From sequence record ON645936.1: DNA of 64,000 nt; one strand, written 5' to 3'. Under the pieces are notes generated by a model that worked only from the letters and a program-made list of their open reading frames with translations, was not told the DNA's origin and searched no databases. The position numbers and the translations under genes were made by a program. Below are positions 13,259 to 40,512 of this stretch, one piece after another. The DNA comes from Escherichia phage N2. The first letter of the stretch is position 1; each line of letters begins with the position of its first letter.

Positions 13259-14972
13259 TAACCTCAACTGGTTTGTTGGTGTTGTTGAAGATAGAATGGA
13301 CCCATTAAAATTAGGTCGTGTTCGTGTTCGTGTGGTTGGTCTGCATCCACCCCAAAGAGCGCAAGGCGATGTAATGGGTATTCCAACCGATAAATTGCCA
13401 TGGATGTCAGTTATTCAACCGATAACTTCTGCAGCAATGTCTGGAATTGGAGGTTCTGTTACAGGACCAGTAGAAGGAACTAGAGTTTATGGTCATTTTT
13501 TAGACAAATGGAAAACTAACGGAATTGTCCTTGGCACGTATGGTGGGATAGTTCGCGAAAAACCTAATAGACTTGAAGGATTTTCTGACCCAACTGGGCA
13601 GTATCCTAGACGTCTAGGAAATGATACTAACGTATTAAACCAAGGCGGAGAAGTAGGATATGATTCGTCTTCTAACATTATCCAAGATAGCAATCTAGAC
13701 ACTGCGATAAATCCTGATGATAGACCGCTATCAGAGATTCCAACTGATGATAATCCAAATATGTCAATGGCTGAAATGCTTCGCCGTGATGAAGGATTAA
13801 GACTAAAAGTTTATTGGGATACAGAAGGATATCCGACAATTGGTATTGGTCATCTTATCATGAAGCAGCCAGTTCGTGATATGGCCCAAATTAATAAAGT
13901 TTTATCAAAACAAGTTGGTCGTGAAATTACCGGAAATCCAGGTTCTATTACAATGGAAGAAGCGGTAACTTTATTTGAACGTGATTTGGCTGATATGCAA
14001 CGTGACATTAAATTACATTCTAAAGTTGGCCCAGTTTGGCAGGCAGTTAATCGTTCTCGTCAAATGGCATTAGAAAATATGGCATTTCAGATGGGCGTCG
14101 GCGGTGTAGCTAAATTTAACACAATGTTAACTGCTATGTTAGCCGGAGATTGGGAAAAAGCATACAAAGCCGGTCGTGATTCATTATGGTATCAACAAAC
14201 AAAAGGCCGTGCATCCCGTGTTACCATGATTATTCTTACAGGGAATTTGGAATCATACGGTATTGAAGTGAAAACTCCAGCTAGGTCTTTATCAGCAATG
14301 GCTGCTACTGTAGCAAAGTCTTCTGACCCGGCTGACCCTCCTATTCCGAATGATTCGAGAATTTTATTCAAAGAACCTGTTTCTTCATATAAAGGTGAAT
14401 ATCCGTATGTTCACACAATGGAAACTGAAAGCGGTCATATTCAGGAATTTGATGATACCCCTGGGCAAGAACGATACAGATTAGTTCATCCGACTGGAAC
14501 GTATGAGGAAGTATCACCATCAGGAAGAAGAACAAGAAAAACTGTTGATAATTTGTATGATATAACAAATGCTGATGGTAATTTTTTAGTAGCCGGCGAT
14601 AAAAAGACTAACGTCGGTGGATCAGAAATTTATTACAACATGGATAATCGTCTTCACCAAATAGATGGAAGCAACACAATATTTGTGCGTGGCGATGAAA
14701 CTAAGACAGTTGAAGGTAATGGAACTATCCTAGTCAAAGGTAATGTTACTATTGTAGTTGAAGGTAATGCTGACATTACAGTTAAAGGAGATGCTACTAC
14801 TTTAGTTGAAGGAAATCAGACTAATACAGTAAATGGAAATCTTTCTTGGAAAGTTGCTGGGACAGTTGATTGGGACGTTGGTGGCGATTGGACAGAAAAA
14901 ATGGCATCTATGAGTTCTATTTCATCTGGTCAATACACAATTGATGGTAGCCGTATAGACGTAGGTTTATAA
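13242..14972 (+). CDS. 5: Baseplate hub + tail lysozyme gp5 (cell-puncturing device)
   Basis: 576 aa; MEMISNNLNWFVGVV N-terminus; internal lysozyme domain (MAEMLRRDEGLRLKVYWDTEGYPTIGIGHL); C-terminal VxGxxxxx beta-helix repeats. Confidence 0.95.
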   Translation: MEMISNNLNWFVGVVEDRMDPLKLGRVRVRVVGLHPPQRAQGDVMGIPTDKLPWMSVIQPITSAAMSGIGGSVTGPVEGTRVYGHFLDKWKTNGIVLGTYGGIVREKPNRLEGFSDPTGQYPRRLGNDTNVLNQGGEVGYDSSSNIIQDSNLDTAINPDDRPLSEIPTDDNPNMSMAEMLRRDEGLRLKVYWDTEGYPTIGIGHLIMKQPVRDMAQINKVLSKQVGREITGNPGSITMEEAVTLFERDLADMQRDIKLHSKVGPVWQAVNRSRQMALENMAFQMGVGGVAKFNTMLTAMLAGDWEKAYKAGRDSLWYQQTKGRASRVTMIILTGNLESYGIEVKTPARSLSAMAATVAKSSDPADPPIPNDSRILFKEPVSSYKGEYPYVHTMETESGHIQEFDDTPGQERYRLVHPTGTYEEVSPSGRRTRKTVDNLYDITNADGNFLVAGDKKTNVGGSEIYYNMDNRLHQIDGSNTIFVRGDETKTVEGNGTILVKGNVTIVVEGNADITVKGDATTLVEGNQTNTVNGNLSWKVAGTVDWDVGGDWTEKMASMSSISSGQYTIDGSRIDVGL

Positions 14973-14990: not shown

Positions 14991-15857
14991 ATGAAAAAAT
15001 CTAACACTGTTCAATTTAGATACATATATAAAACAACCGTTACTAATCCGAAAGGATTAGTACGTGTTTATATTGGTAAACATGAATCTAGATATTTTGA
15101 TTTAGAAAATGACAAGTATATAGGTTCCGGTGATTATATTAAAAAGATACGCAATAAACCTGGTTATAAAATAGATTTTGAAATAATTGAATTTGTTTCT
15201 ACTTATGAAATTCTTAATTTAAGAGAAAGGTATTGGATTTCGAAATATAAATCATCTGACATTCTATGTACCAATATAAAATCCGGCGGTGATGGTTTTT
15301 CATCCGAAGATTTGAAGAGAATGTGGTCTAATCCTGAATATAGGAAAGCTCAATTGAAGGCATTAGCTAAATCAACGTCAACTAAAGAATTTTCAGAGAA
15401 AATATCTAAAATAAACAAAGAAAGATGCGCATCACCAGAATATCGAAAGAAAATGAGTAATGCGATGAAAACTGCTTTTGAAAATGACCCAACATTAAAA
15501 ATTCGTATTTCTAATACCGTTAAATCTTTATGGAAATCCGATGAATACAGAAATAAATTAATCAATCATCCAGGAAAAATAGAAGGAACGAAACAATCAT
15601 GGAATGATCCTTTGATAAGAAAATCGAGATTAGATGCTAGAAATAAAAAACTAAGATCAGTTGAACCTTGGATTAGTATAGAAAAAGTCAAAAAACTTTG
15701 GGAGGATTTGGGAAAACCACATCCACAGAAATACAAATGGTTTAGAGAAAAAGCAATTGAACATGACCTCCCGGATGTAAGTTATAACGCAATTTTAAAA
15801 GCTTTGAAAAAATGTGATTATAAATTTACATCATTAGAGAATTCAACAATTGGCTAA
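14991..15857 (+). mobile_element. GIY-YIG homing endonuclease gene (Seg-like) inserted between genes 5 and 5.1
   Basis: 288 aa ORF; N-terminal GIY-YIG (YIYKTTVTNPKGLVRVYIGKH...YIGSGDY); repeated NUMOD-like DNA-binding motifs (WSNPEYRKAQ, ASPEYRKKMS, WKSDEYRNKL). Confidence 0.8.
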
Positions 15858-29232: not shown

Positions 29233-31743
<2,511 letters not shown>

Positions 31744-31784: not shown

Positions 31785-34925
<3,141 letters not shown>

Positions 34926-34953: not shown

Positions 34954-36933
34954 ATGACTTTATTATCTCCGGGCATTGAGCTCAAAGAAACTACGGTTCA
35001 AAGCACTGTGGTTAATAACTCTACTGGTACAGCAGCTTTGGCCGGTAAATTCCAGTGGGGTCCTGCTTTTCAGATCAAACAGGTTACAAATGAAGTAGAT
35101 TTAGTTAATACTTTTGGTCAACCTACAGCTGAAACTGCTGATTATTTTATGTCTGCAATGAATTTCTTACAATATGGAAATGATTTGCGAGTTGTGCGTG
35201 CTGTCGATAGAGATACCGCTAAAAACTCATCTCCGATTGCTGGTAATATTGAATACACTATTTCTACCCCAGGTAGTAACTACGCGGTTGGAGATAAAAT
35301 CACAGTTAAGTATGTTTCAGAAGACATTGAAACGGAAGGTAAAATTACCGAAGTAGATGCTGATGGAAAAATTAAGAAAATTAATATTCCTACCGCAAAA
35401 ATTATCGCTAAAGCGAAAGAAGTCGGTGAATATCCAGCATTAGGTTCTAACTGGACCGCGGAAATTTCTTCGTCTTCCTCTGGTTTAGCTGCAGTAATAA
35501 CTCTTGGAAAAATTATTACTGATTCTGGTATTTTATTAGCTGAGATTGAAAATGCTGAAGCTGCTATGACAGCAGTTGAATTTCAAACAAATCTCGAAAA
35601 ATATGGAATTCCAGGAGTAGTAGCTCTTTATCCAGGCGAGTTGGGCGATAAAATCGAAATCGAAATCGTATCTAAAGCTGACTACGCAAAAGGAGCTTCT
35701 GCATTACTCCCAATTTATCCAGGTGGCGGAACACGCGCATCTACTGCTAAGGCAGTGTTTGGATATGGACCACAAACTGATTCACAATATGCTATTATAG
35801 TTCGCCGTAATGATGCTATTGTTCAAAGTATTGTTCTTTCAACAAAGCGTGGTGAAAAAGACATTTATGACAGTAACATCTATATTGATGACTTTTTCGC
35901 AAAAGGCGGTTCAGAATATATTTTCGCAACTGCACAAAACTGGCCAGAAGGCTTCTCCGGAATTTTAACTCTGTCTGGTGGATTATCATCAAATGCTGAA
36001 GTAACAGCAGGAGATTTGATGGAAGCCTGGGACTTCTTTGCTGACCGTGAATCTGTTGACGTTCAGTTGTTTATTGCGGGTTCTTGCGCCGGCGAATCTT
36101 TAGAAACAGCATCTACTGTCCAAAAACACGTCGTTTCAATTGGGGATGCTCGCCAAGATTGCTTAGTATTGTGCTCACCACCGCGTGAAACTGTAGTTGG
36201 AATTCCTGTAACTCGTGCTGTTGATAACTTAGTCAATTGGAGAACTGCAGCAGGTTCATACACCGATAATAACTTTAATATCAGTTCAACCTACGCAGCA
36301 ATTGATGGTAACTACAAGTATCAGTATGACAAATATAATGATGTGAATCGTTGGGTTCCATTAGCAGCTGATATTGCCGGTTTATGTGCAAGAACCGATA
36401 ACGTTTCTCAGACTTGGATGTCTCCAGCTGGTTATAATCGCGGCCAGATTCTTAACGTTATTAAACTTGCTATTGAAACTCGCCAGGCGCAGCGCGATCG
36501 TTTATACCAAGAAGCTATCAACCCGGTAACCGGTACAGGTGGTGATGGTTACGTATTGTATGGTGATAAAACAGCTACTTCTGTTCCTTCTCCATTTGAT
36601 CGTATTAACGTTCGTCGTCTGTTTAATATGCTGAAAACGAATATCGGACGTAGTTCAAAATATCGTTTGTTCGAATTAAACAACGCGTTTACTCGTTCAT
36701 CATTCCGCACAGAAACTGCCCAATACTTACAGGGAATTAAAGCTCTCGGTGGAATTTATGAATATCGTGTAGTTTGCGATACAACAAATAACACTCCGTC
36801 AGTAATTGATAGAAATGAGTTTGTTGCAACATTCTACATCCAACCGGCTCGTAGTATAAATTATATCCAACTTAATTTCGTCGCAACTGCTACTGGTGCA
36901 GATTTCGATGAGTTAACTGGTCTTGCAGGTTAA
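34954..36933 (+). CDS. 18: Tail sheath protein gp18
   Basis: 659 aa as T4 gp18. Confidence 0.95.
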   Translation: MTLLSPGIELKETTVQSTVVNNSTGTAALAGKFQWGPAFQIKQVTNEVDLVNTFGQPTAETADYFMSAMNFLQYGNDLRVVRAVDRDTAKNSSPIAGNIEYTISTPGSNYAVGDKITVKYVSEDIETEGKITEVDADGKIKKINIPTAKIIAKAKEVGEYPALGSNWTAEISSSSSGLAAVITLGKIITDSGILLAEIENAEAAMTAVEFQTNLEKYGIPGVVALYPGELGDKIEIEIVSKADYAKGASALLPIYPGGGTRASTAKAVFGYGPQTDSQYAIIVRRNDAIVQSIVLSTKRGEKDIYDSNIYIDDFFAKGGSEYIFATAQNWPEGFSGILTLSGGLSSNAEVTAGDLMEAWDFFADRESVDVQLFIAGSCAGESLETASTVQKHVVSIGDARQDCLVLCSPPRETVVGIPVTRAVDNLVNWRTAAGSYTDNNFNISSTYAAIDGNYKYQYDKYNDVNRWVPLAADIAGLCARTDNVSQTWMSPAGYNRGQILNVIKLAIETRQAQRDRLYQEAINPVTGTGGDGYVLYGDKTATSVPSPFDRINVRRLFNMLKTNIGRSSKYRLFELNNAFTRSSFRTETAQYLQGIKALGGIYEYRVVCDTTNNTPSVIDRNEFVATFYIQPARSINYIQLNFVATATGADFDELTGLAG

Positions 36934-36945
36934 TTGATTGATTGT

Positions 36946-36959
36946 GGGGCTTCGGCCCC
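36946..36959 (+). other. GGGGCTTCGGCCCC stem-loop after gene 18
   Basis: Perfect hairpin with UUCG loop 13 nt after gene 18 stop. Confidence 0.45.
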
Positions 36960-36976
36960 TATTCTCGAGGAAACAA

Positions 36977-37582
36977 GTGATTATTTCTAAGTTTGTTACA
37001 ATAAAACCAAGAAATCATTCAAAAATGTGGTCGACAATTCTAGGATATAAAGTATCATATCATGATACAGTATCTGTTCCAATAGAATTAATGCCAAAGA
37101 ATAGTAATAAAATAGTTGACGCTAAATGTGATTTGTGCGGTATTAAATTTAGTAGAAGCATTCAGCTTTTAAATAGAACACCTACACATGCATGTAGAAA
37201 ATGTAGCATTAAACAAGTTGCTATTAAAAATTCGGAAGTTCAATCCGGAATAAGCAGACCATGGCAAAGAGGCGATAAACACCCTCGATGGACTGGTAAA
37301 AGAAAAGAGTTTGCATTATATGCTAGTAGAGTTCATTCTATAACTAAGTCAGCTAAAATAAGAAAAATTTGGTCAAAATGGCCGAATGCTGATAAAATAG
37401 GAGTGTGCGGTGTAGAAGGTGCTTACCAACTCGATCATAAAGTATCTATCAAATATGGATTTGATAATTTAATTCCGCCGGAAATTATAGCAAGCGTAAA
37501 AAATTTAGAAATAATCACTTGGGAATCTAACCGAGAAAAGTCAAAAAGAAATAGCGTAGATCTTTGGGATTTACTAGAATGA
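36977..37582 (+). mobile_element. HNH homing endonuclease gene inserted between genes 18 and 19
   Basis: GTG start with GAGGA RBS just after the hairpin; HNH-like core GAYQLDHKVS...IITWESNREKSKRN; Cys pair CDLCG...CRKC upstream. Confidence 0.65.
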
Positions 37583-37667
37583 TTCTAAAGGCCTGTTTCG
37601 GCAGGCCATATAAATACACTATATCCTTAATTCTTTAATTCTATATGCCCTAGGTTAAACATAGGGA

Positions 37668-37675
37668 TATAAATA
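37668..37675 (+). promoter_or_regulatory. Late promoter TATAAATA upstream of gene 19
   Basis: Exact TATAAATA 15 nt upstream of gene 19 ATG. Confidence 0.55.
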
Positions 37676-37689
37676 CTACAGAGGCTAAT

Positions 37690-38181
37690 ATGTTTGTAGA
37701 TGATGTAACACGAGCGTTTGAATCTGGTGATTTTGCTCGACCTAACTTATTCCAAGTAGAAATTTCTTATCTTGGACAAAATTTTACGTTTCAATGTAAA
37801 GCCACTGCTTTACCAGCTGGTATTGTAGAAAAAATTCCAGTCGGATTTATGAACCGTAAAATTAACGTAGCAGGCGATCGTACATTCGATGACTGGACTG
37901 TTACAGTAATGAACGATGAGGCACATGATGCTCGCCAGAAGTTCGTTGATTGGCAAAGCATTGCTGCGGGACAAGGAAACGAAATTACTGGTGGAAAACC
38001 TGCAGAGTATAAAAAGAGCGCTATCGTTCGTCAATATGCTCGTGACGCTAAAACAGTAACAAAAGAAATTGAAATTAAAGGTCTGTGGCCTACTAACGTG
38101 GGTGAACTTCAATTAGATTGGGATTCAAACAATGAAATCCAAACATTTGAAGTAACTCTTGCTCTCGATTATTGGGAATAA
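37690..38181 (+). CDS. 19: Tail tube protein gp19
   Basis: 163 aa as T4 gp19. Confidence 0.95.
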   Translation: MFVDDVTRAFESGDFARPNLFQVEISYLGQNFTFQCKATALPAGIVEKIPVGFMNRKINVAGDRTFDDWTVTVMNDEAHDARQKFVDWQSIAAGQGNEITGGKPAEYKKSAIVRQYARDAKTVTKEIEIKGLWPTNVGELQLDWDSNNEIQTFEVTLALDYWE

Positions 38182-38213: not shown

Positions 38214-39838
<1,625 letters not shown>

Positions 39839-39839
<1 letters not shown>

Positions 39840-40087
39840 TGGAAGGTTTAATTGAAGCTATTAAATCAAACGACCTCGTAGCCGCTCGTAAATTCTTTGC
39901 TGAAGCCATGGCTGCAAGAACGATTGATTTAATTAAAGAAGAAAAAATCGCTATCGCTCGTAATTTCTTAATCGAAGGTGAAGAACCTGATGATGAGGAT
40001 GATGAAGACGAGGATGATGACGAAGATAGCGATGATAAAGACGACAAAAAAGACAAAGACTCTGACGAAGACGAGGATGATGAATAA
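39839..40087 (+). CDS. 67: Prohead core protein gp67 with poly-acidic C-terminus
   Basis: 82 aa; C-terminal Asp/Glu run; position after gene 20. Confidence 0.85.
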
Positions 40088-40512
40088 TGCTTCTGATCCC
40101 TGAAACTCATGAATTAGTTCTCGAGAATGTCGAAGCACTTATTCCTGAAGCACAGGGTCGCTTTGACGAATTGTCTTCTGCTTTAAATAAAGACGATATA
40201 AATACAATTGTCGAGAATATGCTTGATGATGAAACTGATTTAGCAATTGCATTAGCTTCTATTAATGAAGATATGCCGCTAAATGAATTCATCGTTAAAC
40301 ATGTTTCTGCTCGTGGTGAAATTACACGTACTAAAGACCGCAAGACGCGTGAACGTAATGCATTTCAAACCACCGGGCTGTCTAAAGCAAAACGTAGACA
40401 AATTGCTCGCAAAGCTACCAAAACGAAGATTGCCAATCCAGCAGGTCAATCTCGTGCTCAGCGTAAGCGTAAAAAAGCTCTTAAACGCCGTAAAGCATTA
40501 GGATTAAGCTAA
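40087..40512 (+). CDS. 68: Prohead core protein gp68
   Basis: 141 aa as T4 gp68; basic C-terminus. Confidence 0.85.

Follow-up and report, generated by a model that had tools for sequence, protein, structure and literature searches.

Between gene 18 (tail sheath) and gene 19 (tail tube) of Escherichia phage N2 lies an open reading frame (ORF) for a 201-residue protein, and the question that this locus raises is what such a gene is doing at a place where most close relatives have only a few nucleotides (nt). The DNA analyzed here, which we call the window, is a stretch of 64,000 nt from sequence record ON645936.1 and is a segment of a Tequatrovirus (T4-like) genome. From the letters alone, a first-pass annotation had read the ORF as a second HNH endonuclease gene of the selfish kind that starts with GTG. 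Our analysis leads to a similar answer, namely that the ORF is probably a free-standing HNH-like gene of the homing-endonuclease type that is lodged in the gene 18/gene 19 slot of Tequatrovirus; that its product cleaves DNA and that the gene homes is what we infer.

An optional gene with exact junctions

The ORF is an optional insert with exact junctions. Phages with an empty site read TAA-TACGGTGCA-TTCTAAAGGCC and match the window again from position 37582, which is the last base of the ORF stop codon. The empty site of RB14 reads ...GCAGGTTAA-TACGGTGCA-TTCTAAAGGCCTGTTTCGGCAGGCC..., and the window has the same flanks separated by positions 36934-37581. When phage records were queried with the empty junction, it was unsplit in 532 of 653 records and split, meaning that the site was occupied, in about 118. 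An intergenic gene that is present or absent among close relatives and has a precise junction is what is expected of a homing endonuclease gene. Scanning IMG/VR for the pattern of the right junction gave only 5 loci, which do not suffice for a census. The end of gene 18 together with the spacer in empty-site phages has a likeness to the end of the ORF (alignment columns 703-725) that looks like chance.

This is a real and intact gene that evolves under purifying selection. It matches PHROG 5104 ('unknown function') over its full length (E 6e-83), and tblastn found the 201-residue protein in 242 phage records, with at least 95% identity in 69 of these; the copy in phage T6 is identical to the window protein at 199 of 201 residues. 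The window differs from Ptacy1496 by 13 synonymous and 1 non-synonymous changes and from T6 by 10 synonymous and 2 non-synonymous changes. The ratio of non-synonymous to synonymous rates (dN/dS) from these two pairs was 0.02-0.05 and across the close-relative comparisons it was 0.02-0.08, and all seven copies translated for the selection analysis were intact with zero internal stops. A profile made from 35 homologues found, among 1.84 billion proteins searched, 6451 cluster representatives at E <= 1e-3 and 1664 at E <= 1e-10. In public records the protein is mostly a 'hypothetical protein' and sporadically an 'HNH endonuclease', a 'homing endonuclease', a 'type II restriction endonuclease' or a 'head morphogenesis protein'. 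That the ORF is a decaying pseudogene or a chance ORF is very hard to credit: some distant loci do hold only fragments of 73-90 residues (L052, L074 and L085), but the window and those close relatives that were examined have an intact frame, and both the low dN/dS and the size of the family speak against decay. Aligned with the gene 18-19 region of its relatives, the ORF is thus not the degenerate pseudogene that the first-pass annotation had kept in view. The features of the locus are as follows.

33090-34922: gene 17 (terminase), in the neighbourhood of the insert
34918-34925, plus strand: late-promoter motif TATAAATA upstream of gene 18, the nearest upstream candidate for read-through into the ORF
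34954-36933, plus strand: gene 18 (tail sheath), the left neighbour, with its TAA stop at 36931-36933
36840-36888, plus strand: hypervariable block at the 3' end of gene 18, completely linked to the inserted allele; a candidate for the target or for co-conversion
36934-37581, plus strand: inserted segment of about 648 base pairs (bp), which replaces the 8-9 nt TACGGTGC(A) of empty-site phages
36946-36959, plus strand: hairpin GGGGC-UUCG-GCCCC of the C(UUCG)G type (GGGGCTTCGGCCCC), part of the insert, 12 nt past the gene 18 stop
36967-36971, plus strand: Shine-Dalgarno sequence GAGGA, 5 nt ahead of the GTG
36977-37582, plus strand: coding sequence of the 201-residue protein, with the GTG start at 36977-36979 and the TGA stop at 37580-37582
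37000-37366, plus strand: variable cassette, the N-terminal, presumed DNA-binding half plus linker, wholly different between alleles A and B
37127-37204, plus strand: zinc-finger cysteines C51, C54, C73 and C76 (CxxC...CxxC), treble-clef or DUF4379-like
37289-37579, plus strand: predicted C-terminal nuclease domain, with the HNH-like core at 37424-37540
37433-37435, 37436-37438, 37502-37504 and 37529-37531, plus strand: key codons of the HNH-like core for D153, H154, N176 and N185, respectively
37590-37607, plus strand: ancestral hairpin GGCCTGT-TTCG-GCAGGCC, in occupied and empty sites alike
37609-37616 and 37668-37675, plus strand: two late-promoter motifs TATAAATA downstream of the insert, which serve gene 19
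37690-38181, plus strand: gene 19 (tail tube), the right neighbour
38253-39839: gene 20 (portal), in the neighbourhood of the insert

The mechanical ORF, from 36938 to 37582, has the GTG at 36977 in frame; its TTG at 36938 is no more than a mechanical start. The hairpin at 36946-36959 has a 5-bp stem and a UUCG loop (-9.6 kcal/mol). Because the insert carries its own hairpin, a stable stem-loop still stands 3' of gene 18 and the ancestral hairpin is now 3' of the inserted ORF.

Zinc finger and HNH-like domain

AlphaFold2 with the family alignment gave a confident two-domain model (predicted local distance difference test, pLDDT, 90). When the C-terminal domain (residues ~105-201) was modelled alone, the pLDDT was 91 and the predicted template modelling score 0.80, and the model has a strand-strand-helix arrangement at the motif, that is, the beta-hairpin and following alpha-helix that form the metal finger of HNH proteins. 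The matches to this domain model include Cas9 HNH domains, SspE, T5 SciA, BrxU and McrA, and the whole model gave a similar result. The HNH-like motif pointed out in the first-pass annotation, QLDHKVS...WESNREKSKRN, covers residues 151-191 counted from the GTG and it is borne out: Y150, Q151, D153, H154, S157, G161, N176, L177, W182, N185, R186 and K188 are invariant in 35 homologues, and the D, H, N and N of the HNH catalytic pattern (D153, H154, N176 and N185) are invariant also in 34 and in 38 more distant sequences. The motif is an H-N-N variant, in which Asn stands at the last position and the usual HNH cysteines are missing. The paired cysteines that the first-pass annotation had named along with the motif are present, but they form a separate N-terminal zinc finger ~75 residues upstream and are no part of the HNH core. 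This N-terminal half contains the Cys4 site, and it has weak matches to the DUF4379 treble-clef zinc finger (13 of 35 members) and to the mitoribosomal protein mS66. The full-length profile matched only zinc-finger proteins in the PDB (mS66 and C2H2 fingers). The Cys4 module presumably binds DNA. On the strength of the modelled fold and the catalytic pattern, the C-terminal domain very probably belongs to the HNH/His-Me finger superfamily, and it is outside any named HNH family.

Several sequence comparisons weigh against this reading. None of the Pfam HNH matches reached significance, as PF01844, the sole Pfam family matched by more than one member, was found in 3 of 38 members with a best E of 0.014, and HNH_4 gave E 0.078. 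A search of the family against NCBIfam gave no match, profile searches of the PDB matched no HNH protein, and hhalign against an alignment of HNH proteins of the HK97 gp74 type gave P 0.033 and a probability of 1.5%, with DH aligned to DH and NL to NW in register. A significant HNH profile match is, however, a criterion of detection and not the structural definition. The profile search of cluster representatives gave no bridge to canonical HNH families, and Foldseek with the whole two-domain model found nothing in the PDB below E 1. The matches that the nuclease-domain profile did have in the PDB, to leucine-rich-repeat proteins such as those of Leptospira, are spurious because residues ~165-186 (37469-37534, IPPEIIASVKNLEIITWESN) with the pattern 'IPPEIIGxIxNLQxIPWxxN' mimic a leucine-rich-repeat unit.

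These negative results raise the question whether the protein might be a zinc-finger nucleic-acid-binding protein in which the HNH-like domain no longer cuts, and which acts as a regulator of genes 18 and 19 or as a structural accessory. The lack of a significant HNH profile match, the Asn in place of His at the last motif position together with the missing cysteines, and the resemblance of the zinc finger to mS66, an RNA-associated mitoribosomal protein, would all fit such a protein. We consider it quite improbable, since the residues that would be catalytic (D-H, N and N) are precisely the ones that never vary in over 70 diverse sequences, enzymes such as I-HmuI are active with the H-N-N variant, and relatives of the protein carry DNA-binding modules of homing endonucleases such as NUMOD3.

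I-HmuI and I-HmuII are intron-encoded H-N-N nicking endonucleases of Bacillus phages and the ORF resembles them in the D-H...N...N pattern with the last His changed to Asn, in the modular DNA-binding parts and in the likely nicking of a single strand. The Geobacter Gme HNH nickase (4h9d), the HNH protein of phage GVE2 (5h0o) and proteins of the HK97 gp74 type are unlike the ORF in that their motif is flanked by Cys/His zinc sites and ends in His. HK97 gp74 assists the terminase, a role that is improbable for an optional gene of a T4-type phage. As a terminase-associated HNH protein of that type the ORF was rejected, as the hhalign comparison was not significant and most close relatives lack the gene.

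Some family members are longer. Seven of them (P0240, P0250, P0259, P0266, P0275, P0324 and P0337) have 347-406 residues, of which the N-terminal 200 match the whole family profile and the remainder is an extra C-terminal extension of 150-200 residues without a Pfam domain. Among the longer, fusion-like members no Pfam domain was found except DUF7487.

Start codon and expression

The first-pass annotation had described, after the gene 18 stop, a hairpin, a GAGGA and an in-frame GTG at 36977, and all of these are present where it had placed them. Comparison with relatives supports this GTG as the start. The same codon is GTG in seven Tevenvirinae lineages (Tequatrovirus alleles A and B, S16, Roth16, QL01/UP19, KMB20 and RZ), and the homologues of Salmonella phage S16, Klebsiella phage Roth16, QL01 (L006), Dhakavirus UP19, Karamvirus KMB20 and Gaprivervirus RZ open with GTG-ATT-ATT. 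In S16, Roth16 and KMB20 the mechanical ORF itself opens at the GTG, and in KMB20 an in-frame TAA stands right before it. In distant relatives, namely metagenomic T4-like phages and Acinetobacter phage Mokit, the identical aligned position is ATG. The GTG initiation proposed earlier holds up in this comparison. In the protein, the stretch of residues 1-16 is conserved, with I2 invariant, and the model has a confident strand at residues 6-9. The layout of a hairpin followed by AAGGA, GGAG or GAGGA and then the start is conserved across lineages, and the hairpin sequences differ: S16, Roth16, UP19, RZ, KMB20 and Mokit each have a hairpin of different sequence in the equivalent place. Between most of these lineages the GTG was kept even though synonymous sites are saturated (dS about 1 or more). 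That a codon one transition away from ATG persists at saturated dS suggests that the weak start is under selection.

It is improbable that the gene starts elsewhere, at ATG 37025 (185 residues, as annotated in PP01), at GTG 36944, at TTG 36938 or at the hairpin ATG of T6 and RB5 (212-216 residues). Database calls do disagree, with versions of 185, 201, 205, 212 and 216 residues, and for the allele of the window gene callers gave 185, 201 and 212 residues. The ATG at 37025, however, has no Shine-Dalgarno sequence ahead of it and would remove the conserved residues 1-16 with the invariant I2 and the confident strand. The upstream starts lie inside or against the hairpin and lack a Shine-Dalgarno sequence, and in S16, Roth16 and KMB20 the frame cannot extend past the GTG. 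T6 (L086) and RB5 (L002) have, at the left junction, an in-frame ATG that ends with the G opening the hairpin stem (TTGATTATGGGGC...) and in place of which the window has GTG; it is this ATG that some gene callers used for the versions of 212-216 residues.

As to how the ORF is transcribed, the late-promoter motif TATAAATA is absent from the plus strand between 34925 and 37609. In the phage of the window the ORF has no late promoter of its own, and therefore it would most simply be transcribed by read-through from gene 18. The hairpin at 36946-36959 has no U-tract and a terminator scan found no site there. A scan for sigma-70 promoters gave no more matches than chance, and an Rfam scan of 36700-37800 gave nothing credible. 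The idea that the hairpin keeps the ribosome-binding site sequestered was not supported, since the fold of 36925-37010 had a z of -0.09 compared to that of shuffled sequence, which gives no sign of such sequestration. The low and regulated expression that the first-pass annotation had proposed is suggested by the conserved hairpin, Shine-Dalgarno and GTG layout together with the lack of a late promoter for the ORF alone.

Other phages have other signals at this place. UP19 (L106), QL01 (L006), RZ (L108), KMB20 (L107) and Roth16 (L005) have an extended -10-like TGnTATAAT or a TATAAT just ahead of the hairpin that precedes the ORF, and in UP19 and QL01 a MotA-box-like TTGCTCTA stands ~11 nt further upstream of the -10-like element. 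In these five phages the homologue seems to have an early or middle promoter of its own, which is absent from the window. In Serratia phages of the CHI14 type TATAAATA is directly 5' of the homologue (L016 and L020), and the stop codon of the homologue is 6 nt ahead of the gene 19 ATG (L016, L018 and L020; TAACTTATG). From these signals, the homologue in CHI14-type phages is predicted to be within the late transcription unit of gene 19.

Slot, alleles and mobility

The nuclease domain is found with interchangeable modules, as expected of homing endonucleases. Distant relatives join the same domain to NUMOD3, helix-turn-helix or zinc-ribbon modules in a bead-on-a-string pattern, and here it is joined to a zinc finger that is swapped as a cassette between two alleles. 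Allele A is that of the window, T6, PP01 and PST, and allele B is that of RB5, RB3, HP3 and pSs-1. The leader, the opening 7 codons and the closing ~70 codons are common to both at about 90% identity or better (more than 87% outside the cassette), whereas the zinc-finger half, 37000-37366, cannot be aligned between them (~45% identity). The variable part of allele B is close to the type in S16 and Klebsiella phages, and that of allele A is close to the types in Karamvirus, Dhakavirus and Gaprivervirus. All full-length relatives in IMG/VR (L006-L030) are beside homologues of gp18 and/or gp19, and this holds even where gp18 is only 38-50% and gp19 only 30-35% identical. Two matches to the nuclease domain (L027, 3001-3477, and L052, 3001-3165) are on the opposite strand, with homologues of gp18 and gp19 on either side, and this suggests that they were inserted in the one slot independently.

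When the flanks were compared in 20 phages, of which 6 have allele A, 4 have allele B and 10 have an empty site, the last 100 nt of gene 18 stood out. The diversity there was 10.2% among empty-site phages, 10.5% between allele A and empty-site phages and 9.6% between alleles A and B, whereas it was 0.87% within allele A and 1.17% within allele B. The neighbouring 100-300 nt had a diversity of 0.5-2.5% in all groups, and the other bins were alike within and between groups. At the hot spot 36840-36888 (gene 18 codons ...SINYIQLNFVAT...) at least four haplotypes were seen in empty-site phages, including a Gln/Thr swap (IQL versus ITL). An allele-linked polymorphism hot spot beside the insertion is consistent with what is expected from target-site variation and co-conversion. 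Taken together, the selfish endonuclease of the first-pass annotation fits the precise presence or absence of the gene, the modular family, the fidelity to the 18/19 slot and the allele-linked hypervariable flank.

Some points tell against homing as the explanation. A haplotype less than 100 nt from the insert would be linked to it by proximity alone, empty-site phages with A-like (G28 and RB14) and B-like (HY01) haplotypes exist, and where phages have diverged too far to recombine, a shared slot could come from old vertical descent with losses and not from repeated homing. The last point leads to the rival view that the gene is no mobile element but encodes a resident accessory nuclease and has long belonged to the T4-type tail and head cluster, inherited vertically and lost repeatedly, and that it would attack competitor or host DNA or aid DNA processing like the terminase-associated HNH proteins of HK97-like phages. 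We regard this as unlikely. The identical slot in phages whose gp18 is so divergent, the strongly purifying selection, the terminase and portal genes nearby and the place of the CHI14-type homologue within the gene 19 late unit all speak for it. On the other side, the gene is missing from ~80% of close relatives, among them RB59, a phage of the T4 species by classification, and it is therefore dispensable. The T4-type terminase has a nuclease of its own, and the comparison with the gp74 type was not significant. Moreover, two deeply divergent alleles are found in genomes that are otherwise more than 95% identical, two copies are in the opposite orientation, and the hypervariable flank is linked to the allele.

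A homing endonuclease gene might work at this locus as follows, where we infer DNA cleavage, the target site, read-through, low translation and homing alike. Transcription of the ORF would prolong the abundant late message of gene 18 at its 3' end, past the stable UUCG hairpin, and weak translation from the GTG behind a good Shine-Dalgarno sequence would give little enzyme, late in infection. In a mixed infection the enzyme would nick or cut a related genome whose site is empty or differently occupied, and its likely target would be the last ~100 nt of gene 18 or the junction. Recombinational repair from the carrier would then copy the gene, together with a short flank, into the genome that was cut, which is the course known as intronless homing.

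Such selfish elements are familiar in T4-type phages (PMC2988022). Among the free-standing HNH homing endonucleases of T4, MobA-MobE, it has been reported that MobE and MobA nick near the insertion site (PMC2988022, PMC2790892), and mobE of Aeh1 is a precedent for hairpins and weak expression signals around such a gene (cited in PMC2988022). Like the Mob genes, the ORF is an intergenic, optional gene of T-even-type phages with an HNH-class nuclease and a DNA-binding part, and it is presumed to act on a neighbouring conserved gene. In Mob proteins, however, the HNH domain is N-terminal and the DNA-binding region C-terminal, whereas in the ORF the zinc finger is N-terminal and the nuclease C-terminal. 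SegF and SegG of T4, which are known for 'intronless homing' and localized marker exclusion, are GIY-YIG enzymes and thus of an unrelated catalytic family, but the lifestyle predicted for the ORF is the same: the gene is intergenic, its enzyme cuts the essential gene next to it, a short flank is co-converted and the target sequences are polymorphic. Hef of phage U5 was described as a 'unique endonuclease', a free-standing homing endonuclease of T4-type phages that belongs to no established family (PMC2988022); Hef-like genes are also found in ViI-like and Campylobacter phages, and the copy in LIMEstone1 adjoins the tail-tube gene (PMC3296691). Compared by description only, Hef is like the proposed reading of the ORF in being a free-standing T4-type homing endonuclease, and the LIMEstone1 copy is like the ORF in its placement next to the tail-tube gene. 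The 'HNH' genes of Acj9 (NUMOD3 and HNH proteins), considered as possible relatives of Hef, are unrelated to the ORF.

The window has other genes of this kind. A 270-residue Mob-like ORF at 30159-30971 (plus strand), between genes 13 and 14, has an N-terminal HNH_4 domain (Pfam E 1.2e-5), and it is the first HNH gene that makes the gene 18/19 ORF the second, as the first-pass annotation had it; the two are unrelated in sequence. HNH_4 in Pfam matches this gene and not the gene 18/19 ORF, and with BLASTP against it giving E 0.53 and with its reversed domain order the gene 18/19 ORF was rejected as a member of the T4 Mob family. At 5677-6342 (minus strand) there is a SegB-like GIY-YIG protein (Pfam E 1.9e-6), and at 14991-15857 (plus strand), after gene 5, there is a 288-residue ORF with a GIY-YIG-like N-terminus and no Pfam match, with TATAAATA at 14968 upstream. 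By their sequences, the window holds at least four predicted genes of the homing-endonuclease type. A 106-residue poly-serine ORF at 39790-40110 (minus strand), which runs antisense to the acidic region of gene 67/68, is almost certainly an artefact of composition.

Since many such elements are already known from T4-type phages, the finding is incremental and not surprising, although the nuclease family of the gene 18/19 ORF appears to be uncharacterised. Our tentative and somewhat doubtful suggestion is that the ORF belongs to a large unmodelled HNH-like clade (the 6451 representatives, with a nuclease domain for which there is no Pfam or NCBIfam model), one lineage of which is faithful to the sheath/tube junction across the T4 superfamily, maybe re-targeting itself by cassette swap as in alleles A and B, and which through T6 was perhaps an unrecognised cause of localized marker exclusion at genes 18-19 in classical T-even crosses. 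If the homing reading is true, it would give a function to the PHROG 5104 protein, which is mostly 'hypothetical' and has had its start annotated in at least three ways, and T6 would offer a tractable free-standing endonuclease whose candidate target is the hypervariable end of gene 18. The two natural alleles, with one nuclease domain and different DNA-binding domains, would then be convenient for studying how the specificity of a homing endonuclease changes.

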